This document shows, piece by piece, positions 16,667-46,940 of a DNA stretch of 56,448 bases. The stretch covers positions 1-56,448 of IMG/VR virus record IMGVR_UViG_3300046804_006442; one strand, given 5' to 3'. Source of the DNA: a virus (lineage: Duplodnaviria; Caudoviricetes). Within the stretch, counting starts at the first letter, position 1, and every line of letters starts with the position of its first letter. Position numbers and translations under genes: made by a program. The notes beneath the pieces were generated by a model, which had not been told where the DNA came from, did not search any database, and was given only the letters and a program-made list of their open reading frames with translations.

Positions 16667-16813
16667 ATGATTTCAAAACTTTCACATATATCGAAACTCG
16701 GGCACTTTATGCCATCATGCCAACCCACATGGGCCGGCTTGGTGCTGGATTATACCCGTGGAATCGAGAATAGTGCGAGTCGGGGGTCTGAGTGTGCAGA
16801 TAGGGACAAGTAG
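16667..16813 (+). CDS. putative attenuator leader peptide (48 aa) MISKLSHISKLGHFMPSCQPTWAGLVLDYTRGIENSASRGSECADRDK
   Basis: Hand-translated; codons 7-37 are 31 different codons covering all 20 aa; contains antiterminator segment GGGGTCT. Confidence 0.6.
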   Translation: MISKLSHISKLGHFMPSCQPTWAGLVLDYTRGIENSASRGSECADRDK

Positions 16814-16835
16814 CAAATAATCCCAAAATGGACAT

Positions 16836-16875
16836 AAAAGACCCCAGGACTAAACACCCTGGGGTTTTTCGTTTT
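16836..16875 (+). terminator. intrinsic terminator/attenuator
   Basis: AGACCCCAGG-9 nt loop-CCTGGGGTTT followed by T-rich tail. Confidence 0.8.
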
Positions 16876-16899
16876 AGTATCAAGTATTTGCAGTCAAGG

Positions 16900-16928
16900 T
16901 TGACAAGTAACATGTGATGCGGCATAAT
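16900..16928 (+). promoter_or_regulatory. sigma70-like promoter
   Basis: TTGACA-17 nt-CATAAT. Confidence 0.6.
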
Positions 16929-16989
16929 TGCACCACGCTAACAACGTGAGGTAATGATTGCAACAGAGTCAACCTGGTAACAACGTAAC

Positions 16990-17180
16990 AAGTGTGAGGG
17001 AACGCGACCCTGCCGGCACTCAAAACATCGGCTGTAATGTGGGCGGCCTACCGGATGAGAAGTTCCTGGCGATAACGGGAATGGTAAAAAGGTAGCGTAA
17101 TAAAGCATATAGGGCTGGCGACTAAGCCGGGGAGAAATCCCAAACTGTATGCTTTATTACACACATTCTACGGAGTGTGT
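16990..17180 (+). ncRNA. unassigned structured RNA at head of tRNA array
   Basis: Several stems, including a perfect 13-bp GTAATAAAGCATA/TATGCTTTATTAC and an ACACATTC-TACG-GAGTGTGT hairpin; no ORF. Confidence 0.45.
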
Positions 17181-17190
17181 TGAACGATTT

Positions 17191-17283
17191 GGGTGTCTTG
17201 ATGCTATGGCGTGTGCATCCCCGGACTGTAAATCCGGTCCCTCGTGGTAAACAATCGCGGTTCGAATCCGTGGACACCCACCA
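17191..17283 (+). tRNA. tRNA-Tyr(GTA)
   Basis: GGGTGTC/GACACCC acceptor, CCGGA-CTGTAAA-TCCGG, CCA. Confidence 0.88.
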
Positions 17284-17288
17284 AAATT

Positions 17289-17375
17289 AGGCTTGACTAG
17301 AAATGGTTTCTTACTCTCACGAAGACCGGTCACTACATGAGAGAGTAGGTGGTTCGATTCCACACTAGCCCACCA
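17289..17375 (+). ncRNA. tRNA-like RNA without clear anticodon
   Basis: T-arm GTGGTTCGATTCCAC and ACCA end; TACTCTC/GAGAGTA stem. Confidence 0.45.
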
Positions 17376-17449
17376 AATCAATACGGCGCGTAGGAGACCC
17401 TCGCGATCCGGATACTTCCGGATGATTCTCTTACAGCCGGACCTTTTAT

Positions 17450-17526
17450 CGGTGTATAGCGCAGCCTGGCAGCGCGTCGGTCTGGGGGACCGAAGGTCGT
17501 CGGTTCGAACCCGGCTACACCGACCA
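17450..17526 (+). tRNA. tRNA-Pro(GGG)
   Basis: Cloverleaf, TCGGT-CTGGGGG-ACCGA, CCA. Confidence 0.93.
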
Positions 17527-17534
17527 ATTTCAAT

Positions 17535-17612
17535 GGTGACTGTCAGCAAGCGGCCTAAGCCTGCGGACTGTGACTCCGCAATTCGTGGGTTCGAATCCCA
17601 CCAGTCACCCCA
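17535..17612 (+). tRNA. tRNA-His(GTG)
   Basis: G-1/C73, GCGGA-CTGTGAC-TCCGC, CCA. Confidence 0.93.
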
Positions 17613-17619
17613 AAGATTT

Positions 17620-17715
17620 GCTCCTCAGCACTCGGCGTGCGGCGCGCCCTTATAAAGCGCGGAGACCGGTCAGATGGGCTGGAACGGCAGGGTTCGAAAC
17701 CCTGGGGGAGTACCA
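17620..17715 (+). tRNA. atypical tRNA, TAT anticodon (Ile by anticodon), long variable arm
   Basis: GCTCCTC/GGGGAGT acceptor, short GCAC/GTGC D-arm, CTTATAA loop, T-arm, ACCA. Confidence 0.7.
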
Positions 17716-17726
17716 ATATAAAATAT

Positions 17727-17803
17727 GGCCCAGACGCATAAATGGTGGTGCACCGGTCTCCAAAACCGGATAAGAGGCGGTTCGATCCCGTCCTGGGTCG
17801 CCA
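17727..17803 (+). tRNA. tRNA-Trp(CCA)
   Basis: CCGGT-CTCCAAA-ACCGG, CCA. Confidence 0.92.
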
Positions 17804-17808
17804 TTTTT

Positions 17809-17884
17809 GCCCTTGTAGCTCAGTTGGCAGAGCAGCGGTTTTGTAAACCGAAGGTCGGGAGTTCGAGACTCTCCGGGGGCACCA
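17809..17884 (+). tRNA. tRNA-Thr(TGT)
   Basis: Cloverleaf, TTTGTAA loop, CCA. Confidence 0.93.
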
Positions 17885-17892
17885 ATTTTATC

Positions 17893-17968
17893 GCCAGTGT
17901 AGCTGAGATGGATTAGCGCCTGCCTGAAGAGTAGGAGGAGGTTGGTTCGATACCAACCGCTGGCACCA
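17893..17968 (+). tRNA. tRNA-Phe(GAA)
   Basis: CCTGC-CTGAAGA-GTAGG, CCA. Confidence 0.92.
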
Positions 17969-17977
17969 ATATCAAAT

Positions 17978-18052
17978 GGATCGTGAGCAGCTGGCGCAGG
18001 CGACTGGCCCTTCAAGCCGGGAAGAGGAGTTCGAATCTCCTACGATCTACCA
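17978..18052 (+). tRNA. atypical tRNA-Glu(TTC) with C33
   Basis: CTGGC-CCTTCAA-GCCGG, T-arm, CCA. Confidence 0.75.
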
Positions 18053-18056
18053 ATCG

Positions 18057-18132
18057 GTTCCCATCTTCTAGAGGCCTAGGAAAACCGCCTTTCACGCGGT
18101 CAACGGGGGTTCGAATCCCCCTGGGAACGCCA
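18057..18132 (+). tRNA. tRNA-Glu(TTC)
   Basis: ACCGC-CTTTCAC-GCGGT, CCA. Confidence 0.93.
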
Positions 18133-18147
18133 CTACAAGGAGAGATC

Positions 18148-18552
18148 ATGGATGTAATCAAGACCTACAATGCCCTGCAGGGGCCGGTGCGTGAGTTCCG
18201 CGAACTCCGGGGTCGTATACTGTGCCGCGCCGAGCAGGACGGCGAAGAGCTACGCCTGTATCTCACCGACGACCACTACGTGAGATTGTATCACGCCCAG
18301 GATTGCTGCGAGTCGGTCTGGATCGAAGACGTCTGTGGCGATCTCCAGGATCTCATAGGTGAGCCCTTGACCGAGGCCGAAGAAGTGCGGGGCTACACAG
18401 GTCCTGAACAAGATTACGAAAGTTATACCTGGACCTTTTACCGTTTTGGTACGCGTCGTGGTAGCGTTACTGTGCGTTGGTTGGGGCACAGCAATGGCTA
18501 CTACGGTGAAGGCGTAGATGTGGCCATCATAGGTGGTCCAGTGGAAGAATAA
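18148..18552 (+). CDS. conserved phage hypothetical protein (YHxQDCCESV motif)
   Basis: AAGGAG SD; QDCCESVWIED, TWTFY, SNGYY. Confidence 0.8.
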   Translation: MDVIKTYNALQGPVREFRELRGRILCRAEQDGEELRLYLTDDHYVRLYHAQDCCESVWIEDVCGDLQDLIGEPLTEAEEVRGYTGPEQDYESYTWTFYRFGTRRGSVTVRWLGHSNGYYGEGVDVAIIGGPVEE

Positions 18553-18553
18553 T

Positions 18554-18631
18554 GTCACCTTAGCTCAGTTGGACTAGAGCATCGGTCTACGAAACCGAGG
18601 GTCGGGAGTTCGAGTCTCTCAGGTGACGCCA
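18554..18631 (+). tRNA. tRNA-Arg(ACG)
   Basis: TCGGT-CTACGAA-ACCGA, CCA. Confidence 0.93.
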
Positions 18632-18637
18632 TACAAT

Positions 18638-18713
18638 GCCTGGTTGAGCAGAGAGGTTATGCACCTCCCTTACAAGGAGGACGATGTTGGTTCGAGTCCA
18701 ACACCAGGTACCA
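18638..18713 (+). tRNA. tRNA-Val(TAC)
   Basis: CCTCC-CTTACAA-GGAGG, CCA. Confidence 0.92.
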
Positions 18714-18720
18714 ATTATAT

Positions 18721-18794
18721 GTCGGTGTGGCCGAATGCTGAGGCTGAGGTCTGCAAAACCTCCTATGCTGGTTGGATTCCAGTCGCCGACTCCA
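18721..18794 (+). tRNA. tRNA-Cys(GCA)
   Basis: GAGGT-CTGCAAA-ACCTC, U73, CCA. Confidence 0.9.
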
Positions 18795-19548
18795 GACACA
18801 TTCGATTGAATTGTTCTATCCGTAGCAACAACTCATTTAAAGATATCGATGACTTCTTATTTTTACTTTGGTTATGTCGATGTGGAACAACTTGGCAGTT
18901 AGCAGGATGTGAGATTATAGTTGGGTCAACTTTATTGATGAACCCATCGCTAACTGAAAATAGGTGATCTCGAGAACATCCGTTAAGATTGTTACCTCGA
19001 TTTGATGCTGAATACCACCCATATTCAGAAATAAGAGACGATACATTAGAAAACCATTGTGGATATGAGCTCAGACTGAACTGAAATCGACATTGATACG
19101 CATAGGTCTTTTTATCTAATATTGTAGTTGGATGGATTGTTTTGATTGTAGGAGAATACCACTTTTTACCAGTTATTTTGCATGTGCAGAGATACACTCT
19201 AGTATGCGGGCCGCTTGCGTCCGGCAGCAATGTTGAACGCCTTTTCCGAGGTGCTTTTGGTTTTGGTGTTTTTGGTTTTGGCCCAGTAACAATCTTATCC
19301 CAATCTTTTTTGGAATTGTTATAAATCGCAGCACATGTTCTCCCACAAAACTTATTGGATTTCCTCCGTAGATATTCAATAGGTTTAGAACAGTTTTTAC
19401 ACAAGCACGGGCTTGACTCATACGCCTCAATTGATTTCTTATGTTTTACTTTACCATTGCGTTTACTAGAACAAGATAGAGAACAATATGTCCCGGTTGA
19501 TCCCGGGGATGGGGTAAAGAGTTTTTGGCAATAATAACAAGTTTTCAT
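18763..19548 (-). CDS. Zn-finger HNH-like homing endonuclease inserted antisense in tRNA array
   Basis: AT-rich; repeated CxxC..YCS/FCGxxC; C-terminal SRDH..HPANC..N; TAAATA upstream on minus strand. Confidence 0.75.
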   Translation of the reverse strand: MKTCYYCQKLFTPSPGSTGTYCSLSCSSKRNGKVKHKKSIEAYESSPCLCKNCSKPIEYLRRKSNKFCGRTCAAIYNNSKKDWDKIVTGPKPKTPKPKAPRKRRSTLLPDASGPHTRVYLCTCKITGKKWYSPTIKTIHPTTILDKKTYAYQCRFQFSLSSYPQWFSNVSSLISEYGWYSASNRGNNLNGCSRDHLFSVSDGFINKVDPTIISHPANCQVVPHRHNQSKNKKSSISLNELLLRIEQFNRMCLESATGIQPA

Positions 19549-19569
19549 AAAGTTATTTATGTTCAAAAC

Positions 19570-19606
19570 AGTATTAGTGTAGGTTCAAATCCAGCCCGTT
19601 GCTCCA
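19570..19606 (+). pseudogene. 3' half of a tRNA (T-arm + acceptor strand + CCA)
   Basis: GTAGGTTCAAATCCAGCCCGTTGCTCCA with no matching 5' half, directly after the endonuclease insert. Confidence 0.5.
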
Positions 19607-19614
19607 AGTTTCAT

Positions 19615-19689
19615 AGCCAGTTAGCTCAGCGGTAGAGCAATCGGTTGATAACCGATAGGTCATTGGTTCGATCCCAATATTGGCTACCA
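19615..19689 (+). tRNA. tRNA-Ile(GAT)
   Basis: ATCGG-TTGATAA-CCGAT, CCA. Confidence 0.93.
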
Positions 19690-19695
19690 AACACG

Positions 19696-19770
19696 GGTGA
19701 TATGGCCTAGACGGATGGGCACGGGACTCATAAGCCCGCGAGGTTGGATCGATACCAACTATCACCACCA
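19696..19770 (+). tRNA. tRNA-Met or Ile2 (CAT)
   Basis: CTCATAA loop, paired 1-72, CCA. Confidence 0.85.
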
Positions 19771-19771
19771 A

Positions 19772-19864
19772 GGAAGGGTTAGCCGAGATGGCCTAGCGGC
19801 GGCGGTTTCGAAAACCGCGGGCCCTGCGAGGGGCGTGTGAGTTCGAGTCTCACCTCTTCCGCCA
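19772..19864 (+). tRNA. tRNA-Ser(CGA)
   Basis: GCGGT-TTCGAAA-ACCGC, long V-arm, G73, CCA. Confidence 0.92.
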
Positions 19865-19870
19865 AAGAAT

Positions 19871-19967
19871 CTCAGCCCAGCAGACGTGCTGGGTATGATA
19901 ACTGCGCCTCCGATGTCACCGCGGGGGATGGAAATACCGGATTCGAGTCTCCGGTGCAACCGTTGAG
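19871..19967 (+). ncRNA. tRNA-like multi-stem RNA
   Basis: CTCAGC/GTTGAG closure, CCCAGCA/TGCTGGG hairpin, T-like ACCGGATTCGAGTCTCCGGT. Confidence 0.4.
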
Positions 19968-20002
19968 TCGGGAGAGAAAAACTAACAGGTGGCCGGAACA
20001 AT

Positions 20003-20074
20003 TGGGGTGAGACTGGAAGTCACACCTGCCTCTGAAGCAGGTTGGAGTTGGTTTGAGTCCAACCGCCCCCGCCA
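20003..20074 (+). tRNA. tRNA-Gln(CTG), reduced D-arm
   Basis: CCTGC-CTCTGAA-GCAGG, unpaired 1-72, GCCA. Confidence 0.82.
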
Positions 20075-20077
20075 GAT

Positions 20078-20169
20078 GGAGAGCTGCCAGAGCCCGGCTT
20101 AATGGCCCTGATTGGAAGTCAGTGGGCGCTGCAAGGCGCACAAAGGTTCGAATCCTTTGCTCTCCGCCA
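20078..20169 (+). tRNA. tRNA-Ser(GGA)
   Basis: TTGGAAG loop, long V-arm, GCCA. Confidence 0.9.
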
Positions 20170-20183
20170 TATATAACAACATC

Positions 20184-20257
20184 GCCCCCATAGTTAAATG
20201 GCATAACGCAGTCTTGGTAAGACTGAATAGAAAGTTCGATTCTTTCTGGGGGCACCA
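20184..20257 (+). tRNA. tRNA-Thr(GGT)
   Basis: CAGTC-TTGGTAA-GACTG, CCA. Confidence 0.93.
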
Positions 20258-20263
20258 GAATCT

Positions 20264-20351
20264 GGAAGAGTGGCAGAGTGGTTGAATGCACCGGTCTTGA
20301 AAACCGGCAGTCCTACGGGGCTCGTGAGTTCGAATCTCACTTCTTCCGCCA
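20264..20351 (+). tRNA. tRNA-Ser(TGA)
   Basis: CCGGT-CTTGAAA-ACCGG, long V-arm, GCCA. Confidence 0.93.
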
Positions 20352-20424
20352 GATGTGTTGCAACTAATCTTAGGGATTGAATGTTAGCCTAAGTTAAAAT
20401 GACAAAAATCATTCACAGATTTAT

Positions 20425-20503
20425 TCCCCATAATCCGAGCAAGGTGCACGGACGTGACTGTTAATCACTGACTAGCAAGGTTCAATTCCTTGATGGGGAG
20501 CCA
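20425..20503 (+). tRNA. tRNA-Asn(GTT)
   Basis: GTGA-CTGTTAA-TCAC, GCCA. Confidence 0.88.
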
Positions 20504-20510
20504 GAACAAT

Positions 20511-20596
20511 TGCGGGGTAGAGAGTAACGGTAGCTTGCGAGTCTCATAAGCTCGCGCCGCAAGGCCCAGGTGGTTCAATTCCATCCCCCGCTACCA
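20511..20596 (+). tRNA. initiator-like tRNA-Met(CAT) with extra variable-arm hairpin
   Basis: TGCGGGG/CCCCGCT with 1-72 mismatch, CTCATAA loop, GCC-GCAA-GGC V-arm. Confidence 0.82.
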
Positions 20597-20601
20597 AAAA
20601 T

Positions 20602-20676
20602 AGTCCCAAAGTGTTCATGGACGCATGCGAGCCTGTCACGCTCGAGGAAGGGGATCGTTACCCCTTGGGACTGCCA
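20602..20676 (+). tRNA. tRNA-Asp(GTC)
   Basis: CGAGC-CTGTCAC-GCTCG, GCCA. Confidence 0.9.
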
Positions 20677-20679
20677 GCA

Positions 20680-20780
20680 TTGAGATCGCACAGTAAAAAC
20701 AACGGGCGGGGTGTGCGGGTTCGATTCCCGGTTGAGGCGGGTGGAAGCCCGGCCTTGGCTGCGCCCAGATCTCAAGACCA
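20680..20780 (+). ncRNA. tRNA-like RNA with internal T-arm (possibly Y RNA/YrlA-like)
   Basis: TTGAGATC/GATCTCAA closing stem, central CGGGTTCGATTCCCG, ends ACCA. Confidence 0.45.
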
Positions 20781-20849
20781 GTACTCCTGTCACCACACCC
20801 TCACTGAGTAGCGCAGGGAAGGGCAGCGTGAGGGCTGCCCGAGAGTTTT

Positions 20850-20935
20850 GCCCCGGTGGTGGAATTGGCAGACACGCGAGCTTCAGGTGCTCGTGCTCAC
20901 AAGGCTTAGGAGTTCGAGTCTCCTCTGGGGCACCA
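20850..20935 (+). tRNA. tRNA-Leu(CAG)
   Basis: CGAGC-TTCAGGT-GCTCG, V-arm, ACCA. Confidence 0.93.
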
Positions 20936-20967
20936 AATACACAGCAGAATCAATGACTCGGCAGTGG

Positions 20968-20996
20968 TTGACCACAATCATCAAACTGCCTATAAT
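20968..20996 (+). promoter_or_regulatory. sigma70 promoter
   Basis: TTGACC-17 nt-TATAAT. Confidence 0.75.
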
Positions 20997-21015
20997 AGCG
21001 GCATAAGTTAGTAAT

Positions 21016-21028
21016 TGCTCTTTAACAA
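21016..21028 (+). promoter_or_regulatory. rrn-type boxA antitermination site
   Basis: TGCTCTTTAACAA, the rRNA-leader boxA consensus, 20 nt after the -10 box. Confidence 0.8.
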
Positions 21029-21029
21029 T

Positions 21030-21152
21030 GCGGCTTTATTCACATGCGCATCTGGGCACTCGGCCGATGCCCTGCATAGTGCAGCCGCGCTCCCTTGGGA
21101 GCGTTCGAGGTGGATGGTGAAAATCCATTGATGTGCAGTTGAATAAGGCTGT
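21030..21152 (+). ncRNA. long-stem multi-branch RNA
   Basis: GCGGCTTTATTCA/TGAATAAGGCTGT closing stem with three internal hairpins. Confidence 0.5.
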
Positions 21153-21250
21153 AACAGTTTATTGGAACATGTGGCGAGATTCCAAAGGGTCGGTGATGTG
21201 TAGTGCAGCATCTGCCAATAGTGACCAAACCACCTCTGAGTCCAAATTTT

Positions 21251-21410
21251 TTGTTAGATTGAAATGTGTTGCTAGTTTAAAGAAAACATGCTTGGCCCTA
21301 AGGCAGCGGTTTTCTCTAAAGGTCATGGGATACTGTGACCACGGAGTCGACCACTTAGTAGGCATATTGGGTGTGGGCAGTGCATCCGGCAGCATATTTC
21401 AATGTAACAA
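21251..21410 (+). ncRNA. long-stem RNA (ATTGAAA...TTTCAAT family)
   Basis: 22-bp closing stem with one mismatch. Confidence 0.5.
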
Positions 21411-21418
21411 TACAGTAG

Positions 21419-21490
21419 CCATATTGAAACACATTGGACCCCCGCAGGGGATGGTTGACAACAGGCTCATGCCAGTGTGTTTCGATATGG
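21419..21490 (+). ncRNA. long-stem RNA (ATTGAAACACATT...AGTGTGTTTCGAT family)
   Basis: 19-bp closing stem with G-U pairs. Confidence 0.5.
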
Positions 21491-21492
21491 TA

Positions 21493-21629
21493 ACAGGTGG
21501 CAGCATGAGCGTGGTGTGATCCTCGAGGTAAGCGCCCGGACATGCGCTCACTCGTGCAGAGCAGTCGGGCGGCCGCCCGGCCTCGGTGGAGTGAGAGATA
21601 TGGGTTCGATTCCCATCTACTTGTGACCA
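21493..21629 (+). ncRNA. enlarged tRNA-like RNA (~137 nt)
   Basis: ACAGGTGG/CTACTTGT acceptor-like stem, ATGGGTTCGATTCCCAT T-arm, CCA end, large central insert. Confidence 0.5.
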
Positions 21630-21728
21630 TATTGAAGCGCATTCAAACACTGTGGCCACAGTGCAGCTGGATGCAGGGTTATACTATGACCCGTTGGGTT
21701 CGATTCCCAGAGTGTGTTTCAATATGGT
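21626..21728 (+). ncRNA. long-stem RNA enclosing a cloverleaf-like module with T-arm
   Basis: ACCATATTGAAGCGCATTC/GAGTGTGTTTCAATATGGT 19 bp; TGGGTTCGATTCCCA inside. Confidence 0.55.
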
Positions 21729-21740
21729 ATTACCCTATAT

Positions 21741-21814
21741 GCGGGATTAGTTTAATGGTAAAACGAGTGCCTTCCAAGCACACGTCAGCGGTTCGATTCC
21801 GCTATCCCGCTCCA
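21741..21814 (+). tRNA. tRNA-Gly(TCC)
   Basis: GTGC-CTTCCAA-GCAC, TCCA. Confidence 0.93.
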
Positions 21815-21819
21815 GATTC

Positions 21820-22140
21820 TGGTTCTTGTCTATATAGCCTCGACCTGTAGGGTTCCGATCTCTACCACTGCCTGGCCCCAAAGCCGGGTCCAAAGATATT
21901 ATGTGAAATATATAGGTGGCATACCGGGACAAACGGCACAGCGGATTAGACACCTGCTGGGAACCGGACCCAATCCCTGAGTCCAGGCAGGTAGCCCTGG
22001 AACACTAGCGACAGTGAGTCAACGTGGAACTCAAACGTTGGGCGTGAAAGAGCCGGTGGTTGACTGTGACGAGCCGGTAAGGAAATGCGCAGCACGGAAC
22101 AGCGGACCCTAAACCAAGATCACGAAGGTCCATGTGATCA
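21820..22140 (+). ncRNA. unassigned ~320-nt structured RNA
   Basis: No convincing ORF; long-range TAGGGTTCCG/CGGACCCTA and CTGCCTGG/CCAGGCAG pairings. Confidence 0.45.
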
Positions 22141-22144
22141 TTTT

Positions 22145-22221
22145 GCCCTGGTGACGGAATTGGCATACGTACTGGTCTTAGAAGCCAGGTTTTGTGGGTT
22201 CGAGTCCCACCTGGGGCACCA
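22145..22221 (+). tRNA. tRNA-Leu(TAG), short variable loop
   Basis: CTGGT-CTTAGAA-GCCAG, ACCA. Confidence 0.9.
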
Positions 22222-22308
22222 TATTCAAGCACATTCTTGTTAGACTGAAACCCTGGTAGAATGCCGATTGGCCGCTTCCAACCCCGGGCATAGAGTGTGC
22301 TCCAATCT
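22222..22308 (+). ncRNA. long-stem RNA (AGCACATTCT/AGAGTGTGCT family)
   Basis: Same closing-stem motif as the 21419 and 21626 elements. Confidence 0.45.
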
Positions 22309-22400
22309 GGAGAGTTGGCTGAGTGGCTGAAGGCAGCGGTTTGCTAAACCGTCGACCGGGGAAACCCGGTCCATAGGTTCGAATCCTATACTCTCCGCCA
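22309..22400 (+). tRNA. tRNA-Ser(GCT)
   Basis: GCGGT-TTGCTAA-ACCGT, long V-arm, GCCA. Confidence 0.93.
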
Positions 22401-22475
22401 AAACACTATGGTTTCTGGATACCTGCATCCAGTGCCGGCGGGTAAGCCGCTATTTTTTCAATCACGAGGTGACGT

Positions 22476-22958
22476 ATGAAGATGAAACTAAACATCCCGG
22501 AAGTGGTTGAGTTCATAAGAGCCCAATCACCCGAAACCCGGATCTACCTGGGTTGCGACAGTGAACGCTATCGCGTTGACAATGTCTGGTATGCCGACTA
22601 CATTCTTGCCGTGGTCGTACACATGGACGGAAATCACGGCTGTCGCCTGTTTGGTGAGGTCGTGACCGAGCGTGATTACGATCAGCGGCGCGATAGGCCC
22701 GCTACCCGGCTCATGACCGAAGTCTACAAGATCTCGGAACTGTATCTCCAGCTGGCCGAAGTCCTGGAAGGACGGCATGTGGAAGTGCACCTCGACATCA
22801 ACCCCGACGAACAGTTCGGTTCCAGCTGCGTGATCCAGCAGGCCGTGGGTTATATCAAGGGTGTATGCAACGTCATACCCATGGTCAAGCCCGACGCTTT
22901 CGCTGCCAGCTATGCCGCTGACCGCCTCAAGCACGTCAGCAGCTACCGCGCAGCATAA
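22476..22958 (+). CDS. RNase H-like YkuK/DUF458 family protein
   Basis: IYLGCDS, RLMTEV, EVHLDIN, KPDAFAASYAAD. Confidence 0.85.
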   Translation: MKMKLNIPEVVEFIRAQSPETRIYLGCDSERYRVDNVWYADYILAVVVHMDGNHGCRLFGEVVTERDYDQRRDRPATRLMTEVYKISELYLQLAEVLEGRHVEVHLDINPDEQFGSSCVIQQAVGYIKGVCNVIPMVKPDAFAASYAADRLKHVSSYRAA

Positions 22959-23020
22959 TCTGACCCGCTTACACTAGCGGCATAAATCCAAGTGGAGGCC
23001 GGTGCAATCCCGGCCACGAT

Positions 23021-23094
23021 GCGGGCTTAGTTTAGTGGTAAAATCAGTCGTTGCCAACGATTAGTTGAGAGTTCGATTCTCTCAGCCCGCACCA
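23021..23094 (+). tRNA. tRNA-Gly(GCC)
   Basis: AGTCG-TTGCCAA-CGATT, CCA. Confidence 0.92.
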
Positions 23095-23109
23095 AACTAA
23101 TTACAATAT

Positions 23110-23628
23110 ATGGATACTCTACGATTACAGCTCGCCTGCACCTATTGCAATGGGTGGCCACGATTACGTGTACGATTGCAGAATGATCTCATATATGATT
23201 TCGCCCCGGACCAAGCCCAGGTCGATCTAGCAGTTGATTTGCCCCAGACTCCTGGACCCTGTTGGATCGAGATCGAGCGTTGGGGCAAGACCGCAGCAAA
23301 CACCCAAGACGGCGCGGATCAAGTCGTGGAGATCAAACAACTCTACGTTAATGACATGGCGATACCGCAATGGTTTTTATGGGGGAACAGTCAATTTCGT
23401 TTCAATGATCAATGCCAGCAATCGTTGATCATGGCGCCGAACGGTGTCTGGCGGTTGGATTTCGCGACCCCGCTGATCACCCACATATTGGATCAAAAGA
23501 TCCTGCACGAAGCTCAATACAACCAGGATTACCAATATCCCTGGAGTTATAAATTTGGTCCCGGGCAGACTGAAGAATTAGATCGAGAATTGGCGAACGC
23601 CATGGATCTGGTGAGGTCTAAGTTATGA
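23110..23628 (+). CDS. hypothetical protein coupled to radical SAM gene
   Basis: ATGA overlap with next gene. Confidence 0.7.
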   Translation: MDTLRLQLACTYCNGWPRLRVRLQNDLIYDFAPDQAQVDLAVDLPQTPGPCWIEIERWGKTAANTQDGADQVVEIKQLYVNDMAIPQWFLWGNSQFRFNDQCQQSLIMAPNGVWRLDFATPLITHILDQKILHEAQYNQDYQYPWSYKFGPGQTEELDRELANAMDLVRSKL

Positions 23629-25112: not shown

Positions 25113-25115
25113 CAT

Positions 25116-25193
25116 CTGCCCTTAGCTCAGTGGACTCAGAGCAGTGAGCTTCTACCTCACGGGTCGGGGGTTCGAATCCCTCAGGGCGGACCA
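25116..25193 (+). tRNA. tRNA-Arg(TCT)
   Basis: GTGAG-CTTCTAC-CTCAC, CCA. Confidence 0.92.
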
Positions 25194-25224
25194 GTATTTG
25201 AATCGATAAATATTCCAATAAGGA

Positions 25225-25548
25225 ATGATTATGTCAACTACATTTAACTGGACCGTGGAGAAAATGATCTGCGCACCTGAACTCGAGGGTCACACAGATG
25301 TGGTAACATCGGTGATGTTCGCATGTGCGGGCACAGATGGTACCCACGGCGCAGAAATACGCGATACCTGCGCTATTCCATATCACGCTGATAGCTTCGT
25401 CGCTTATCAGGATCTTACCCAGGATCAAGTGCTGGCATGGTTGGATGCTCAAGGCATCAACCGTCCTTATATCGAACAATTGGTGCAGCAAAAGATCAGC
25501 GATCAATATCAAAATCTGCAGATCCAAGATCCGCCCTGGGTTTCTTAG
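25225..25548 (+). CDS. conserved phage hypothetical protein
   Basis: AAGGA SD; FVAYQDLTQDQVLAW..PPW motif common in small phage proteins. Confidence 0.75.
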   Translation: MIMSTTFNWTVEKMICAPELEGHTDVVTSVMFACAGTDGTHGAEIRDTCAIPYHADSFVAYQDLTQDQVLAWLDAQGINRPYIEQLVQQKISDQYQNLQIQDPPWVS

Positions 25549-25580
25549 ATCAGTAGCACCAACAGCGTAAATAGATTTAC

Positions 25581-25656
25581 GGGGGTATAGCTCAGCTGGG
25601 AGAGCGCTAGCTTTGCAAGCTAGATGTCGTCAGTTCGATCCTGACTACCTCCACCA
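25581..25656 (+). tRNA. tRNA-Ala(TGC)
   Basis: G3-U70, CTAGC-TTTGCAA-GCTAG, CCA. Confidence 0.94.
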
Positions 25657-25660
25657 AATT

Positions 25661-26113: not shown

Positions 26114-26116
26114 CGG

Positions 26117-26177
26117 TTGACCTGTAGCGTCAACTCACATATACTAGAGACTATTGCAGTAAACGTTCTTTTACAAA
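26117..26177 (+). promoter_or_regulatory. sigma70 promoter plus boxA-like site
   Basis: TTGACC-17 nt-TATACT; CGTTCTTTTACAA about 20 nt downstream. Confidence 0.65.
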
Positions 26178-26185
26178 TTAGGAAT

Positions 26186-27085: not shown

Positions 27086-27162
27086 CCTTTCCGTTATAAA
27101 TAATAGTGTAGTTCGCGGGATTGGCGTCCCCAACTACTCTAATGCTTAGACGGAGCACCAGG

Positions 27163-36070: not shown

Positions 36071-36147
36071 GCCCCGGTGACGGAACTGGCATACGTACTG
36101 GTTCGAGAGACCAGGTTCTGTGGGTTCGAGTCCCACCCGGGGCACCA
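36071..36147 (+). tRNA. tRNA-Leu(GAG), short variable loop, C33
   Basis: CTGGT-TCGAGAG-ACCAG, ACCA. Confidence 0.88.
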
Positions 36148-41685: not shown

Positions 41686-42897
41686 ATGACTATCAAACAA
41701 ATAATCGGCAACGGCGTTACCGCCGACGGCAGATACGAACTGCGAGTGCCGGTAAAGATCTGGACCAATGACATCGAGCCCACGGCTCTTGAACAGGCTC
41801 GTAAGCTGGCTCAGCTGCCCTTTATCCACAAGAACGGCGTGGCGCTTATGCCCGACGTGCATGCTGGTATTGGCTCTACTGTGGGCTCAGTGATCGCGAC
41901 TGAACATGCTGTGATCCCGGCGGCTGTGGGTGTGGATATTGGCTGCGGTATGAACGCGATCCGCACCAGCCTGCGCGCCGAGGACTTGCCCGACAGCCTG
42001 CGCACTGTGCGTCTGCAGATTGAGCGCGACGTGCCCCTGGGCGCGGGTGGTGCTCACAAAGAAGACTTGGCGGTGTTTCCGCAGCCCTTGGGTACCCGGG
42101 CTCGCCAACTGTTCGCAAAGCATCCCAACTTGGAAACCCGGCAATGGCATCGCCAGCTGGGCACGTTAGGTTCGGGCAACCACTTTATCGAGCTGTGCCT
42201 GGACGAAGCGGGCGCGGTGTGGATCATGCTGCACTCGGGTAGCCGTGGTGTTGGTAACACGATCGGCCGTCACTTTATCGATCAAGCCAAGCGCCTGATG
42301 GAACGGTTTTTCATTACGCTGCCGGATCGCGACTTGGCTTATTTGCCGGATGGCACCCAGGAATTTGCTGACTACATCGAAGCGATTGGTTGGGCGCAGG
42401 ATTATGCTCGCGAAAACCGTGCTATCATGATGACTGCGGTGATCGCGTCGCTGCGCCGGCATATCCCGGTAGAGTTTGAGCTGACGTCTGAAGCGGTCAA
42501 TGCACATCATAACTACCTGGAGATCGAGAACCACTTTGGCACCAACATGTATATCACTCGCAAGGGTGCTATCCGTGCGCGTCGAGGTGATCTTGGTATT
42601 ATCCCGGGCAGCATGGGCGCGAAGAGCTACATCGTGCAGGGCCTGGGCGATCCGGAATCCTACTGCTCGTGTAGCCATGGTGCGGGTCGTAAGATGTCGC
42701 GCACTGAAGCGAACCGGCGGTTTACTGTAGAGGACTTGAAGGCGCAGACTGCGGGTGTGGAATGCAACAAGACGTCCGCGGTTATCGACGAGATTCCCAG
42801 TGCATACAAGGACATCGATGTGGTCATGGAGAACCAGCGGGACTTGGTTCGTGTGGTGCATACCCTGAAGCAGGTTATGTGCGTCAAAGGTGCGTAA
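41686..42897 (+). CDS. rtcB: RtcB RNA ligase
   Basis: MPDVHAG, VGVDIGCG, LGSGNHFIE, HSGSRG, HHNY, RKGA, PGSMG, SHGAGR, DEIPSAYK. Confidence 0.96.
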   Translation: MTIKQIIGNGVTADGRYELRVPVKIWTNDIEPTALEQARKLAQLPFIHKNGVALMPDVHAGIGSTVGSVIATEHAVIPAAVGVDIGCGMNAIRTSLRAEDLPDSLRTVRLQIERDVPLGAGGAHKEDLAVFPQPLGTRARQLFAKHPNLETRQWHRQLGTLGSGNHFIELCLDEAGAVWIMLHSGSRGVGNTIGRHFIDQAKRLMERFFITLPDRDLAYLPDGTQEFADYIEAIGWAQDYARENRAIMMTAVIASLRRHIPVEFELTSEAVNAHHNYLEIENHFGTNMYITRKGAIRARRGDLGIIPGSMGAKSYIVQGLGDPESYCSCSHGAGRKMSRTEANRRFTVEDLKAQTAGVECNKTSAVIDEIPSAYKDIDVVMENQRDLVRVVHTLKQVMCVKGA

Positions 42898-43604: not shown

Positions 43605-44168
43605 ATGACCCGGATCCGAAGTGACAGCCATGGTTTGTATGTGAGGACCAACGGGTCTGTGTATCGACCCGTTGAAACACCTTGGTCCTATTACGTTACC
43701 CAGGCCGCGGTGCAGGGTATCACGCAGTTTGCCGAGGGCGAAGAGATCAAAGTCAGTCATGTGACTGGTTCACCCTTTGCACGTCTGCGTGGCGCGGATA
43801 CCAGGGATTTTTCAAATCGTGTGGAATTGTGGCATAGTCATGGTTGCTATTACGATGATCAGGGCAAGATCCGCAAAAGTGATGAACTTTGGGAACCCAA
43901 AGCTGAAGCCGCAGTTCGCAGCGTCCCGGTTACAGAAAGTATACGCTATCAGCATGGCCCATATTATCGTGTTCCGGACTATTGGCTGCAATTCATAGAA
44001 TCGGTCAAGCGCGATAATCCAAACATGCGTCTGCCCTTGAATATACACCATATAAACGAGTATCTGGTGCCATACAATGGTAGAATTATCGAAGAAGGCT
44101 ATGTCAGCTGGACTTTGATTTTTGAATCACAACGAGATTTCGCTTTCTTTTTATTGAGGTTTGCATAA
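43605..44168 (+). CDS. hypothetical protein (possible two-domain fusion)
   Basis: Ends FESQRDFAFFLLRFA. Confidence 0.65.
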   Translation: MTRIRSDSHGLYVRTNGSVYRPVETPWSYYVTQAAVQGITQFAEGEEIKVSHVTGSPFARLRGADTRDFSNRVELWHSHGCYYDDQGKIRKSDELWEPKAEAAVRSVPVTESIRYQHGPYYRVPDYWLQFIESVKRDNPNMRLPLNIHHINEYLVPYNGRIIEEGYVSWTLIFESQRDFAFFLLRFA

Positions 44169-44611
44169 TGACAGAAGAACTTAAACCCTGGATCGAAAAC
44201 GTGGCCGCGTCTGATGTGCCGCAAGGTTTTCATCATGACTGCGGTGCCAATGCCATGCTGATCCAGATCCGCGATCCCCGCAGCAAGTGGTGGCCCCAAC
44301 CACGGCATCAATTCCGGGAAATACACCAGTTTGAATTCCTGGATGCTGACTGGAAGGATGGCTTCCCGGAAGCGGACAAGATCCAGCCGGATCAGGCCCG
44401 GACCATCGTGGTGCTATTGCAGCATGCCCTGGCTCACAACATGAACGTGGTGGTGCACTGCATGGCCGGCGTCTGCAGATCGGGTGCTGTGGCCGAAGTA
44501 GGCGTCATGATGGGTTTCCGTGATGTGGGTCGCATGCGTATACCCAACATCCGGGTCAAGAAGATGATGATGCAAGAACTGGGATGGACCTATGACGAAG
44601 AAACGGTTTAA
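44168..44611 (+). CDS. Cys-based (PTP/dual-specificity) phosphatase
   Basis: VHCMAGVCRS CX5R motif. Confidence 0.85.
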   Translation: MTEELKPWIENVAASDVPQGFHHDCGANAMLIQIRDPRSKWWPQPRHQFREIHQFEFLDADWKDGFPEADKIQPDQARTIVVLLQHALAHNMNVVVHCMAGVCRSGAVAEVGVMMGFRDVGRMRIPNIRVKKMMMQELGWTYDEETV

Positions 44612-44819
44612 GCGCCCCCCGCAGTGGTTCCTGATCCGGACCTGGCAATTCCTGCATCGGCGGGTCAGCCACTCGGATGATCGCTATCCCAACGTCCGCC
44701 GGCGCTGGCTCAGGGCCATGCAGAGGTTCAACGATCATCACTTTGCCGAGCGTGGGCTAAGATACCGGAGGACCACTGCTCGTTTCGTCAATCGCTATAC
44801 CGCGCACCGCTGGATGTGA
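44592..44819 (+). CDS. basic hypothetical protein
   Basis: Operon overlap. Confidence 0.5.
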   Translation: MTKKRFKRPPQWFLIRTWQFLHRRVSHSDDRYPNVRRRWLRAMQRFNDHHFAERGLRYRRTTARFVNRYTAHRWM

Positions 44820-45196
44820 ACATGTCCCGAGATTCCCGTTACAGGTTTTTTGATCGGCACATGACCAACAAACATGGCCGTACCTGGGGCCATGTGCACG
44901 AAGATTGCCGTGATGCCATTTTCAACTATCTGGTGCATGGTTATGAACCCGGTGGTTTCTTGACTGCGGTCATCACCAATGATCTCCGGCGCGCAGCCTG
45001 CGTGGCCGATTTCGAAAACATCGAGCGCCTGGGACATGTGGCGCGGTTCGTCGCGCATGCCCTGCCCGAGATCTGCACCGGTAGCTGGAACGCCATGTCA
45101 TACTGGATGCAGCTCAGCGAGCGTGAACGTGAAGAGATACTGATCGAAGTCCGTTTGCTGCCCACTTTGTTTGATGTGATCAAGGATCCCTATTGA
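44816..45196 (+). CDS. conserved phage hypothetical protein
   Basis: YLVHG.EPGGFLTAV..NDL..A...AD..N. Confidence 0.75.
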   Translation: MNMSRDSRYRFFDRHMTNKHGRTWGHVHEDCRDAIFNYLVHGYEPGGFLTAVITNDLRRAACVADFENIERLGHVARFVAHALPEICTGSWNAMSYWMQLSEREREEILIEVRLLPTLFDVIKDPY

Positions 45197-45227
45197 CCTG
45201 TGTGGATACATCTGCTACAATACAGGG

Positions 45228-45800
45228 ATGAAAACTACATTCTTGATCGGTGATACGCATTTTGGACACGCCAATATCTGCCGTTTTCCGGCCTCAGACG
45301 GTCGCGGAAAACTACGTCCCTGGGATGACGTGGCAGACATGGACGAGGCCATGGTCGAAAAATACAATGCCAAGGTCGGACCAAATGACAAATGTTATTT
45401 CCTAGGTGATGTGTGTATCAACCGAAGAGCCCTGCCTATACTGGGTCGTCTCAACGGCGACAAGGTCCTGATCAAGGGCAATCATGACATCTTCAATCTA
45501 GCCGACTATGCGCCCTACTTCCGGGATATCCGGGCCTATCATGTCATGAATGGCATGATCCTGAGCCATATCCCGGTGCATGAATCGGCACTGTATCGCT
45601 TTGGTGCCAACATACACGGTCACCTGCATGACAAGCGAGTCATGCTGGCCGACGGTAGCGGGATCGATCCACGCTATATTACCGTGAGCGTGGAGCAGAC
45701 CGACTATGCGCCCATCAGCTTGGATGAAGTGCAGGATCGTATCCGGGCCCAGGGTGGGGTAGTAGGTTTCCGTAATGGCAATGGACCACAGGTGGACTAG
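45228..45800 (+). CDS. calcineurin-like metallophosphoesterase
   Basis: GDTHFGH, LGD, GNHD, LSH.P, HGHLH. Confidence 0.9.
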   Translation: MKTTFLIGDTHFGHANICRFPASDGRGKLRPWDDVADMDEAMVEKYNAKVGPNDKCYFLGDVCINRRALPILGRLNGDKVLIKGNHDIFNLADYAPYFRDIRAYHVMNGMILSHIPVHESALYRFGANIHGHLHDKRVMLADGSGIDPRYITVSVEQTDYAPISLDEVQDRIRAQGGVVGFRNGNGPQVD

Positions 45801-45801
45801 C

Positions 45802-46029
45802 ATGAGATCTGCACATAGAAAACATGGTGATCAACTGCCCTGGCGGATTCGTTTCGCTTGGTTTCCGGTATATATCTATGACTCCCATGAAGAACGCTGG
45901 TACTCGGTATGGTGGGAACGCTATACCGAACAGCGTACTTGGATAGTCAAAGAACGTCCTACCAAGTTTGGTTACCACATAACCTGCGGTGCGTGGGAAG
46001 TACAACGCAAGATGATAAAGAAATGCTAA
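45802..46029 (+). CDS. hypothetical protein
   Basis: FAWFPV..VWWE. Confidence 0.6.
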   Translation: MRSAHRKHGDQLPWRIRFAWFPVYIYDSHEERWYSVWWERYTEQRTWIVKERPTKFGYHITCGAWEVQRKMIKKC

Positions 46030-46149
46030 TGGGTGGCTACCGACCCAGGCCTCTGCTATGTACGCTGAATGGGGTGGGGTGATTAGTTATAATCGAGCCG
46101 CGATAACCTGATGATCGCACCGGATACGGTAACCGGTAAATACCCAGTT

Positions 46150-46347
46150 ATGACTTTGGCACAATTCATGATTATGTTATTGGTGTTGGGGGCGGTTGGC
46201 CCAGATGCCGGCGCCTATCAAGTGCGTCGAGTCTGCGAGGAAGTCATGACCAAACAAGGTCGTAAAGAGTATTGTCGAACCGTGTTAGACAACAGCGTCA
46301 AACCCGTGGATGAGAAAGACAAAAAGGACAAAGCAAAAAATAAATAG
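46150..46347 (+). CDS. small exported protein
   Basis: Signal-like N-terminus, C..C. Confidence 0.55.
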   Translation: MTLAQFMIMLLVLGAVGPDAGAYQVRRVCEEVMTKQGRKEYCRTVLDNSVKPVDEKDKKDKAKNK

Positions 46348-46482
46348 AAATATGCTGTGCGGGGGTAAGCCCCAGGTGGCGCTGGTTTTCTATCTGCCTG
46401 AAGGTTGTTGCCGTGAAAGACGCAAGGTCAGTCGCAGACATCACACGCCCCGGCGGTTGCGACATATATTTGGGAGTTTGAT

Positions 46483-46617
46483 ATGCCAGATGATGATGTA
46501 AGAGCCAGAGTCAGCGTACAAACACCTTGGTTCAAATTGTTTGTGGACCGGATAGACTGGAAAGAGGTCGTGGTAGTAGGCATGGTGTTGTTGACCATAG
46601 TTTATTTGGTCCGGTAA
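46483..46617 (+). CDS. small membrane protein (44 aa)
   Basis: GGGAG SD; hand-translated, C-terminal TM segment. Confidence 0.5.
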   Translation: MPDDDVRARVSVQTPWFKLFVDRIDWKEVVVVGMVLLTIVYLVR

Positions 46618-46910
46618 GAATTGCTGTATGAAGCAGATCCAAAGACGGACAAGACAGGGGTTCGACTCCCCTCCAGTCCACCAGAAAGTATACTGCATAG
46701 GTTTTTGCGGATGGCGCCATCCAACACAATTCAGTAGTATACTTTCTAATGGGCTGGTCATGGTATCGATTGACGGACAAGTAGACGAGTGGACAGCAGG
46801 GTAGGCGAAGACCCTAAATCTAGCGAAACTATAGACGCTAACGACGATCTATTCGCACAGGCCGCGTAAAACCGGCTGCTGAGGCAGGAATGCCAAGAAA
46901 CAGAAAATCC
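46618..46910 (+). ncRNA. ssrA: two-piece (circularly permuted) tmRNA, tag ANDDLFAQAA
   Basis: T-arm + CCAGTCCACCA (ends 46683) precede GGGCTGG (46751; G3-U70); tag ORF 46837-46869; intervening long stem. Confidence 0.9.
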
Positions 46911-46912
46911 AG

Positions 46913-46940
46913 AAATAGGCTCTTCGGAGCCTATTTTTTT
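46913..46940 (+). terminator. intrinsic terminator
   Basis: AAATAGGCTC-TTCG-GAGCCTATTTTTTT. Confidence 0.9.

Follow-up and report, generated by a model that had tools for sequence, protein, structure and literature searches.

Large phages that carry parts of the translation apparatus are already known, and a region in which many such parts lie close together raises the question of whether they form one functional unit or a mosaic. The IMG/VR virus record IMGVR_UViG_3300046804_006442 (Duplodnaviria; Caudoviricetes), which was analysed here over its entire length of 56,448 bases (hereafter the window), contains such a region. Within 30 kb and on one strand it carries an island of tRNA genes, a miniature RNase P RNA, a release-factor gene with an in-frame UGA, the genes of an RtcB RNA ligase, a cysteine phosphatase and a metallophosphoesterase, and a two-piece transfer-messenger RNA (tmRNA). 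An initial annotation had read these parts as one integrated module against host translation-shutoff defences. The parts themselves are real; the tRNAs for all 20 amino acids (covered by the ARAGORN calls), the stop-gated release factor, the CX5R phosphatase, the metallophosphoesterase, the RtcB ligase and the two-piece tmRNA were all recovered as described, but conservation with the rest does not extend to RtcB, the miniature RNase P RNA or the location of the tmRNA. Moreover, the region contains a GOLLD RNA that was absent from the earlier list of parts.

Our data suggest that the region is a translation-support island of a huge phage, which is probably a mosaic of a conserved core and lineage-specific additions and not one co-inherited kit. 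Its conserved core comprises the tRNA island together with GOLLD and a release factor of the RF1 type that lacks domain 1. Close to this core, RtcB and a 252-nt RNase P RNA are additions, as is the tmRNA in this lineage. The CX5R phosphatase and the metallophosphoesterase are persistent, co-oriented neighbours of the release-factor gene across the clade.

Conserved core and lineage-specific additions

The release factor has 171 relatives in IMG/VR, of which the best 80 were taken as loci, and co-occurrence was counted in 19 whole records, i.e. the window, 13 records selected by the release factor and five selected by an RNase P RNA pattern. This check had been proposed together with the module, and its outcome is divided. 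The tRNA island, GOLLD and the trio of release factor, phosphatase and phosphoesterase go together. The release-factor gene is present in 15 of the 19 records, with exactly one TGA in each, the CX5R phosphatase in 14, the metallophosphoesterase in 15 and GOLLD in 12, in ten of which it is located 2.4-14.8 kb from the release-factor gene. Of the 80 loci, 27 were scanned for tRNA genes, and in 26 of these the release-factor gene is flanked by tRNA arrays; in the complete relative G001 all 45 tRNAs are found in one 15-kb island, 3.9 kb from that gene.

The other parts behave differently. RtcB occurs in 2/19 whole records and in none of the four release-factor-bearing relatives that are at least 92% complete; conversely, the release factor is found in 0/80 RtcB loci, among which the phosphatase accompanies only the two closest RtcB relatives (95% and 86% identity). 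In one of these two the gene order of the window is preserved between 40 and 54 kb, with the tmRNA included, and a syntenic tmRNA is present in L097. The miniature RNase P RNA was found in six of the 19 records, the window and the five selected for it, and in 0/13 of the release-factor-selected records. A permuted tmRNA is present in 12/19 records, including 6/6 of those at least 90% complete, and its distance to the release-factor gene amounts to 11-140 kb, in the complete relatives usually 44-140 kb.

These counts bear directly on the integrated anti-defence module, in which a leader peptide and the UGA would act as sensors that switch on tRNA replacement, maturation, repair and rescue at host-imposed shutoff. 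The location of all parts on one strand within 30 kb is in line with it, as is the published concept for jumbo phages in parts of PMC7824862 and the neutralisation of PARIS by a viral tRNA described in parts of PMC11464382. However, RtcB, the miniature RNase P RNA and the tmRNA position do not follow the rest, and the region is broken up, since strong promoters occur in it at no fewer than five separate places and many of its genes are unrelated to translation support (those of HNH endonucleases, a radical SAM enzyme and a methylase as well as a primase piece and a GATase). Together with the arrangement of the leader discussed below, we regard this reading as quite unlikely.

The CheckV completeness of the window contig is 16%, which for 56 kb indicates a whole genome of about 350 kb, in agreement with relatives of 320-364 kb. 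The window is a piece of a very large (huge) freshwater phage. Its genes for QueD, QueE and GTP cyclohydrolase (7-deazaguanine synthesis), thymidylate synthase, HNH endonucleases and a virion protein are phage-like. GenBank phages gave no DNA match to the window, and every GenBank phage match to the release-factor protein is below 60% identity. Near-identical DNA is found in freshwater, reservoir and estuary metagenomes from several studies; for example, positions 29596-35300 are present on a 5.7-kb DNA contig of another study with 133 differences, hence in an independent sample. The coordinates of the features are compiled in Table 1.

Table 1. Features of the tRNA-rich region and its surroundings in the window (all assignments predicted from sequence).
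Feature	Coordinates	Strand	Support or remark
Sigma-70-like promoter TTGACG-17-TAACAT, 9/12	16628..16656	+	equivalent in L093, L094, L095
48-codon open reading frame, candidate leader peptide or small RNA	16667..16813	+	all 20 amino acids
Intrinsic terminator, 10-bp stem then T run	16841..16873	+	kept in L093, L094
Strong promoter TTGACA-17-CATAAT, 11/12, of first tRNA block (P16900)	16900..16928	+	kept in L093, L094
tRNA island: 41 CCA-encoding tRNA genes, 20 amino acids, protein genes between	17191..36147	+	ARAGORN, Rfam
Promoter 11/12 (20968-20996), 20 nt later exact rrn-type boxA TGCTCTTTAACAA (21016-21028)	20968..21028	+	
Promoter 10/12 (26117-26145), 19 nt later boxA-like CGTTCTTTTACAA, 10/13 (26164-26176), 5' of GOLLD	26117..26176	+	
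GOLLD RNA with embedded tRNA-like module (26683-26757)	26621..27080	+	Rfam RF02032
Promoter matching consensus 12/12	28375..28403	+	
Miniature class-A RNase P RNA, 252 nt, between tRNA-Pro(cgg) and tRNA-Leu(caa)	31078..31329	+	RF00010
Promoter 11/12 for tRNA-Val, tRNA-Ala and release-factor gene	34294..34322	+	
Release-factor gene, RF1-type, 223 codons, domain 1 absent; TGA in frame at 34607-34609	34502..35173	+	
Hairpin region 8 nt after UGA, helix 34617-34627 with 34668-34678	34617..34678	+	
RtcB RNA ligase	41686..42897	+	Pfam E 6.9e-126
CX5R dual-specificity-type cysteine phosphatase, motif HCMAGVCRS	44168..44611	+	
Calcineurin-type metallophosphoesterase	45228..45800	+	phrog_547 E 3.7e-48
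Two-piece (permuted) tmRNA, tag ANDDLFAQAA	46576..46960 (ARAGORN 46590-46960)	+	ARAGORN tmRNA*, Rfam

A release factor interrupted by a conserved UGA

The release-factor gene starts with ATG, contains the in-frame TGA as codon 36 and ends with the stop codon at 35171-35173. Its product resembles RF1, which gave the best PDB matches (141 bits), followed by RF2 (78 bits), while RF-H was matched only with E 1.2e-05. The alignment to RF1 begins at residue ~88-113; hence the phage protein starts where domain 2 of RF1 starts and domain 1 is absent. The PPT (PxT) motif for codon recognition and the GGQ motif for peptidyl hydrolysis are both present in the translation. In NCBIfam the protein reaches 154 bits with prfA, below the equivalog cut-off of 400, and 33 bits with release_prfH, for which the cut-off is 166.65, so that it does not classify as PrfH.

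The UGA aligns with a conserved Trp of the Thermotoga RF1. TGA stands at the same codon in 76/76 tabulated loci (4 of the 80 were dropped, since their match begins at the locus edge), and all 61 distinct 75-nt contexts carry it, with neighbouring codons on both sides varying synonymously. Full translation would only be possible by reading through this conserved UGA at the Trp position. The two distant huge-phage homologues inspected have TTT or TTC as the codon at the Trp position and not TGA; one distant homologue contains other in-frame stops and the second has in-frame stops just upstream of the aligned part. The UGA gate is therefore specific to this clade.

The UGA is followed by a hairpin region whose helix corresponds to alignment columns 23-33 with 74-84. 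This helix is paired in 90.8% of 600 cells (60 distinct sequences) compared to 18-48% when the partner was slid, and 31 compensatory cells were counted versus 3.0 +/- 3.2 in shuffles, a value that 0/500 shuffles reached. For example, the pair 31-76 is realised as AU in 25, GC in 18 and GU in 17 sequences. RNAalifold returned nearly no consensus for the 60 post-UGA sequences (-0.3 kcal/mol). The "UGA read-through sensor" of the initial annotation would fit these data, i.e. a conserved UGA with a hairpin after it.

A UGA at a Trp position in the gene of an RF1-type factor could also be explained by a code change, in which UGA is converted from stop to Trp late in infection and the factor serves UAA and UAG only, as has been proposed for the TGA-recoded Jade phages; RF1 genes in TGA-recoded phages are reported in parts of a preprint (10.1101/2021.08.26.457843). 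However, the code-change genes in that source are themselves written in standard code, and TGA terminates 11/37 family-supported genes of the window, hence it is a normal stop here. No tRNA(UCA) was found in the window or among the 45 tRNAs of the complete relative G001. Because of the TGA usage and the lack of tRNA(UCA) in G001, a changed genetic code was rejected, the stop usage having settled the question, and we consider this explanation very unlikely. Removing any single stop lengthened open reading frames (ORFs) on both strands and was thus uninformative on the genetic code. A special UGA-reading tRNA-Trp was likewise rejected as a candidate, since the tRNA-Trp of the window has an ordinary 5-bp anticodon stem, unlike the UGA readers with a 4-bp stem described in parts of PMC13092985.

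The insertion of selenocysteine at the UGA, with the hairpin acting as a bacterial selenocysteine insertion sequence (SECIS), appears extremely unlikely to us. The hairpin begins 8 nt after the UGA, and bacterial SECIS elements have a similar spacing. However, cellular RF1 has a Trp and not a redox cysteine at this place, the hairpin is about 62 nt long with a loop that is not conserved, and the tRNA-Sec model gave matches of only 25-34 bits (cut-off 47), which correspond to seryl and tyrosyl tRNAs.

A parallel in regulation is prfB, the gene of RF2, which is autoregulated by an early in-frame UGA and a +1 frameshift. In the phage gene the UGA is likewise early, and the output would be set by the efficiency of UGA termination. 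In contrast to prfB, the phage frame continues, which would require read-through and no frameshift, a downstream hairpin is found in place of the upstream Shine-Dalgarno-like stimulator, and UGA should not be read by the factor itself, which is of the RF1 type.

A second parallel is given by PrfH (RF-H) with RtcB2, for which ribosome rescue and rRNA repair are described in parts of PMC9304027, PMC13166195 and PMC6514570. As in these systems, a release-factor homologue without N-terminal domain shares one locus with an RtcB ligase. The phage factor differs in that it is RF1 by sequence and keeps PxT and GGQ, the phage RtcB is below the release_rtcB cut-off, and nearly all factor-bearing relatives are devoid of RtcB.

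Phosphatase and phosphoesterase as neighbours

When 83 ORFs of the window were compared with the 80 release-factor loci, the phosphatase was found in 74 and the phosphoesterase in 52, while the next best ORF reached 13 loci. Phosphatase and release-factor genes share one strand in 74/74 cases; the gap between them has a median of 834 nt, and the phosphatase precedes the release factor in 24 loci and follows it in 50. For the phosphoesterase gene the strand is likewise shared in 52/52 cases, with a downstream position in 51 and a distance within 25 nt in 15. A linkage that is kept through such rearrangement points to a functional trio of release factor, phosphatase and phosphoesterase. In the window itself, a 9-kb stretch with two tRNA-Leu genes, primase pieces, the GATase and RtcB interrupts the trio.

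The P-loop HC.AG.CRSGA of the phosphatase was compared across 17 homologues; all of them have the same H, C, A, G, C, R, S, G and A, and variation is confined to the remaining two positions. Its AlphaFold2 model (pLDDT 88) gave DUSP12, OH1 and VH1 as best Foldseek matches with TM-scores of 0.45-0.54, and Pfam DSPc matched with 24 bits, below the cut-off of 33.5. The HCxxGxxR(S/T) P-loop and the predicted dual-specificity phosphatase fold suggest a similarity to atypical dual-specificity phosphatases. The phosphoesterase contains the calcineurin-like motifs GDTHFGH, LGD, GNHD and GHLH. No Pfam match was obtained at E 0.01; the nearest proteins are an uncharacterised Aquifex protein (PDB 1xm7, E 9e-06) and, weakly, PdeM. 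In one relative (L062, positions 1280-1795) the phosphatase homologue contains an in-frame stop codon.

The tRNA island, its promoters and GOLLD

The region contains a near-complete set of CCA-encoding tRNA genes. Several promoter matches of the sigma-70 type precede them, and behind two of these matches a boxA-type site is located. The 42 tRNA calls of ARAGORN extend from 17191 to 36147 without any on the minus strand, and the Rfam tRNA model marked 34 places in the window at gathering score. The claim of 42 tRNA genes with encoded CCA needs to be corrected by one: 41 carry CCA, but the 42nd call is a CCA-less tRNA-like insert in the GOLLD RNA. GOLLD itself is full-length (191.4 bits versus a cut-off of 150, model positions 1-416), and its tRNA-like module has the "anticodon" TTA. 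In relatives the "anticodon" loop is different in each of 5 aligned copies and CCA is never present. Because of the missing CCA and the variable loop, a role of this module as ochre suppressor was rejected. A full-length GOLLD with a tRNA in its linker inside a phage tRNA island is what parts of a preprint describe (10.1101/2024.12.08.627333), and the present copy shows no notable difference.

Two boxA sites had been proposed. The rrn-type boxA consensus is TGCTCTTTAACAA, and the site at 21016-21028 matches it in 13/13 positions shortly after a promoter; by arithmetic, chance would give ~0.002 exact matches over the window. The second site is a 10/13 variant; since 13 boxA-like sites with up to 3 mismatches were observed in the window versus 12 expected, it is by itself not above chance.

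With tRNAs for every amino acid, strong promoters and boxA, the island looks similar to an rRNA/tRNA operon of a cell, and many tRNAs, RF1/RF2 and tmRNA are common in huge phages according to parts of Al-Shayeb et al. 2020 (PMC7162821). Hence the island might simply supply components, i.e. raise capacity, fit the codon use of the phage or offset a host shut-off made by the phage itself, with factor, tmRNA and ligase as housekeeping copies. However, such plain supply leaves unexplained why a UGA and a hairpin are kept in the release-factor gene of every relative, why two phosphatases stay beside this gene, and why a ligase for cyclic-phosphate ends is present. We regard it as rather unlikely.

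Several details of the island deserve mention. Four tRNAs with Leu anticodons (tag, caa, taa and gag at 22145-22221, 31338-31414, 35384-35460 and 36071-36147) have 77 nt and are devoid of the long variable arm of bacterial leucine tRNAs, and a fifth tRNA-Leu (cag, 20850-20935) has 86 nt; short Leu-anticodon tRNAs are also found in relatives such as L015 and L031. A 96-nt tRNA-Tyr called by ARAGORN at 17620-17715 has the unusual anticodon ATA and no Rfam tRNA match even at E 1. Between a tRNA-Tyr and a tRNA-Pro a 166-nt insert is located (17284-17449), while in L093 and L094 only 8 nt separate these tRNAs; it contains a T-arm-like segment ending ...CCCACCA and resembles a tRNA 3' half. The ~260 nt from P16900 to the first tRNA (16929-17190) contain no ORF and no Rfam match; their first 35 nt are almost identical in L093 and L094 and may be a leader or another small RNA. 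In G001 (L194) a lone tRNA with a CUA anticodon (amber-suppressor type, 363,408-363,482) is situated 900 nt beyond the tmRNA and at a great distance from the island with the 45 tRNAs.

Among the protein genes, a B12-binding radical SAM methyltransferase-like gene lies inside the island (23625-25112) and may modify RNA; its best NCBIfam matches are P-/C-methyltransferases and MiaB-like enzymes, all under cut-off. An ORF on the minus strand between two tRNA-Leu genes (35464-36054) weakly matches a phage protein-kinase family (phrog_15752, E 9e-08). The stretch 36500-40300 has poor ORFs, possibly due to a split or decayed gene or an intervening element, and the primase fragment at 38106-38645 matches only positions 146-330 of the 435-position phage primase profile. 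Outside the island, the GTP cyclohydrolase, QueD-like and QueE-like genes at 3558-9897 suggest 7-deazaguanine modification of DNA or tRNA.

A miniature RNase P RNA

The RNase P RNA named in the initial annotation is a real RNA match (RF00010, 61.8 bits, E 1e-16), but it is a miniature that has no specificity domain and is below the gathering score of 100 bits. The alignment spans model positions 1-367; P1, P2, P3, GAGGAA..GGGC, ACAGAACCC and the P15-loop CGGGU align to the model, while the 140 model positions of the specificity domain (P7-P14) are reduced to 33 nt. The catalytic domain is thus represented by P1/P2 covariation and the conserved regions GAGGAA..GGGC and ACAGAACCC. For covariation only P1 and P2 were counted, because the MAFFT alignment of the middle part is unreliable; these helices are 96.3% paired with 11/16 pairs compensatory in 5 distinct sequences, which was reached by 0/500 shuffles. 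A pattern scan revealed five further copies in large-phage contigs (242-258 nt, 60.9-84.9 bits), three of them among same-strand tRNA genes and one 2 kb from GOLLD.

Compared to the bacterial class A RNA, the phage copy shares P1-P3, the conserved regions, the P15-loop CGGGU and the P1/P2 covariation, and differs by its length, the cut specificity domain, the sub-threshold score and its position within a tRNA array. Natural minimal forms of RNase P exist, e.g. the type T of Pyrobaculum. The P15-loop CGGGU pairs with the tRNA 3'-RCCA, and this pairing might explain a ribozyme without the elbow domain among tRNA genes that all encode CCA. No RnpA (rnpA) and no SmpB (smpB) were found in the window or in four complete relatives; hence the host proteins would be required.

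In contigs from RNA libraries, in which DNA may be present as well, GOLLD was covered (26500-27064) in two runs of one study, 191 nt of the miniature RNase P RNA (31131-31321) in one run, and several protein genes in a third run, where uncovered parts prove nothing. The coverage of GOLLD and the RNase P RNA would fit stable RNAs and is not proof of transcription.

RtcB ligase and tmRNA

The RtcB protein is full-length (PF01139, 421 bits, model positions 1-426). With 155 bits versus a cut-off of 272 for NCBIfam release_rtcB it does not, by this cut-off, belong to the PrfH-associated type. The tmRNA with its tag is called as tmRNA* by ARAGORN and exceeds the cut-offs of both Rfam models, with 108.8 bits for tmRNA_permuted RF04321 (cut-off 47) and 122.5 bits for beta_tmRNA RF01850 (cut-off 84).

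A candidate leader ahead of the array

The 48-codon ORF in front of the array had been proposed as a "pan-codon leader". It contains all 20 amino acids but only 40 distinct codons; hence "pan-amino-acid" is right and "pan-codon" is wrong. It is the sole ORF with all 20 amino acids among 107 window ORFs of 44-52 amino acids, though all 20 are expected in 5.6% of random peptides of 48 residues. The predicted transcript start lies ~4 nt 5' of the ORF, and no clear Shine-Dalgarno sequence is present. The whole layout is kept in L093 and L094, where the ORFs (48 and 50 amino acids) each contain all 20 amino acids. Only 3 relatives of the leader were found in IMG/VR, and a 24-nt pattern from its core found nothing in the metagenome collection; being close kin, the three relatives count as one observation. 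Substitutions at the three codon positions number 1, 3 and 8 in one comparison and 1, 3 and 4 in the other, a lean towards the third position. However, a 55-nt core is invariant at the nucleotide level including wobble positions, which indicates an RNA-level constraint. The leader may be a translated sensor or a small RNA, both of which would fit the data.

In trp-type attenuation a leader peptide controls an intrinsic terminator. The phage locus also has a short ORF followed by an intrinsic terminator and a segment with two possible partners, because GGGGUCU within the ORF could pair with either the upstream ACCC or the terminator arm AGACCCC, as in trp-like 1:2/2:3/3:4 pairing. ORF and terminator are kept in 2-3 close relatives. 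Unlike trp-type leaders, the ORF does not repeat a single regulatory codon but includes each of the 20 amino acids, and the genes to be controlled have their own promoter after the terminator. The conserved ORF and terminator with possible trp-like pairing speak for a sensor within an integrated anti-defence module. However, because the 11/12 promoter of the array follows the terminator, the leader cannot gate the array, and at most it could add read-through transcription to that from P16900.

Possible mode of action

On the basis of these features, the phage tRNAs would replace or top up the host tRNA pool, and their 5' leaders could be trimmed by the miniature RNase P RNA together with host RnpA, which might recognise the encoded 3'-CCA rather than the tRNA elbow. 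The boxA would keep RNA polymerase elongating through the structured array. At the UGA with its hairpin, the output of release factor would be set by a contest between tRNA-Trp and host RF2, and this contest could act as throttle or gauge. The release factor might then terminate at UAA/UAG or free stalled ribosomes, RtcB would reseal RNAs whose cleavage has left 2',3'-cyclic-phosphate and 5'-OH ends, non-stop ribosomes would be freed by tmRNA together with host SmpB, and both phosphatases would act on some substrate of the same pathway. The net effect would be that phage protein synthesis continues when the host apparatus is depleted or attacked.

Going further, it is tentatively conceivable, though improbable as a whole, that the clade runs a self-gauging unit for termination and rescue that has not been described previously. 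Such a unit would consist of the domain-1-less, RF1-derived factor, the phosphatase and the metallophosphoesterase, with hairpin-assisted UGA read-through making the factor output a report of the balance between tRNA-Trp and host RF2, and with both phosphatases having either the translation apparatus or broken RNA ends as their target. The miniature RNase P would be an addition of some lineages, including the present one, for their own CCA-containing pre-tRNAs, rendering maturation partly independent of the host, and the small ORF ahead of the array, in which each of the 20 amino acids occurs, might sense charging in general.

Several points weigh against a firm statement of the core-and-additions mosaic and of the mode of action outlined above. 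Every step beyond the presence of the genes and RNAs is one that we infer from sequence. The selection of relatives by release factor or RNase P pattern biases the co-occurrence counts, which also ignore kinship. The nearest relatives (L096-L098, found by RtcB, and L093 and L094, found by the leader) are short fragments, 3-39% complete, and absences there, including those of the release factor and the RNase P RNA, therefore say little. The exact boxA is absent from all 95 relative loci scanned. The miniature RNase P RNA is under the Rfam gathering threshold, its activity is only predicted, and the idea of its CCA-dependence draws on RNase P biochemistry. The phage tRNA-Trp gives no sign of special UGA reading, and an RF1-type factor would not recognise UGA, so that no simple prfB-like self-feedback loop is to be expected. 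Moreover, the post-UGA helix was derived from one member and then tested, its covariation counts are inflated by related and coding sequences, the minimum-energy fold of the window itself is in another register than the family helix, and a subgroup (L037, L043, L046, L052, L056 and L060) is off the family register as well.

Relation to known systems and outlook

The gene content of the region has clear parallels. The sets of large phages in PMC7162821 and PMC7824862 likewise comprise many tRNAs, RF1/RF2, tmRNA and RtcB-type ligases, which those sources read as sustaining translation or countering attack; in particular, phage tRNAs, RNA ligases and peptidyl-tRNA release are presented as counters to attacks on translation in parts of Iyer et al. 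2021 (PMC7824862). The term "RNase P" occurs in neither of these two papers, supplements aside; the main text of PMC7824862 does not contain "tmRNA" and has "release factor" only in a reference, and neither main text describes a UGA-interrupted release factor or the phosphatase neighbours. A full-text literature search, limited to the papers themselves, found no paper on a phage-encoded RNase P RNA or on a UGA-interrupted phage release factor. The interrupted release factor, the miniature RNase P RNA and the split between core and additions were not in the literature searched. The anti-defence purpose would be an interpretation whose concept is already in print.

The split between core and additions, as obtained from co-occurrence, shows which genes belong together for deletion work. 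If the read-through is true, the release-factor gene would be a natural, phage-borne case of programmed UGA read-through in bacteria and may also sense the capacity for termination. The RNase P RNA, a natural form that consists of the catalytic domain only and lies amid CCA-encoding tRNAs, raises the question of how little ribozyme suffices in vivo. Finally, the anti-defence reading is of relevance to tRNA-targeting immunity, a field that is growing fast.

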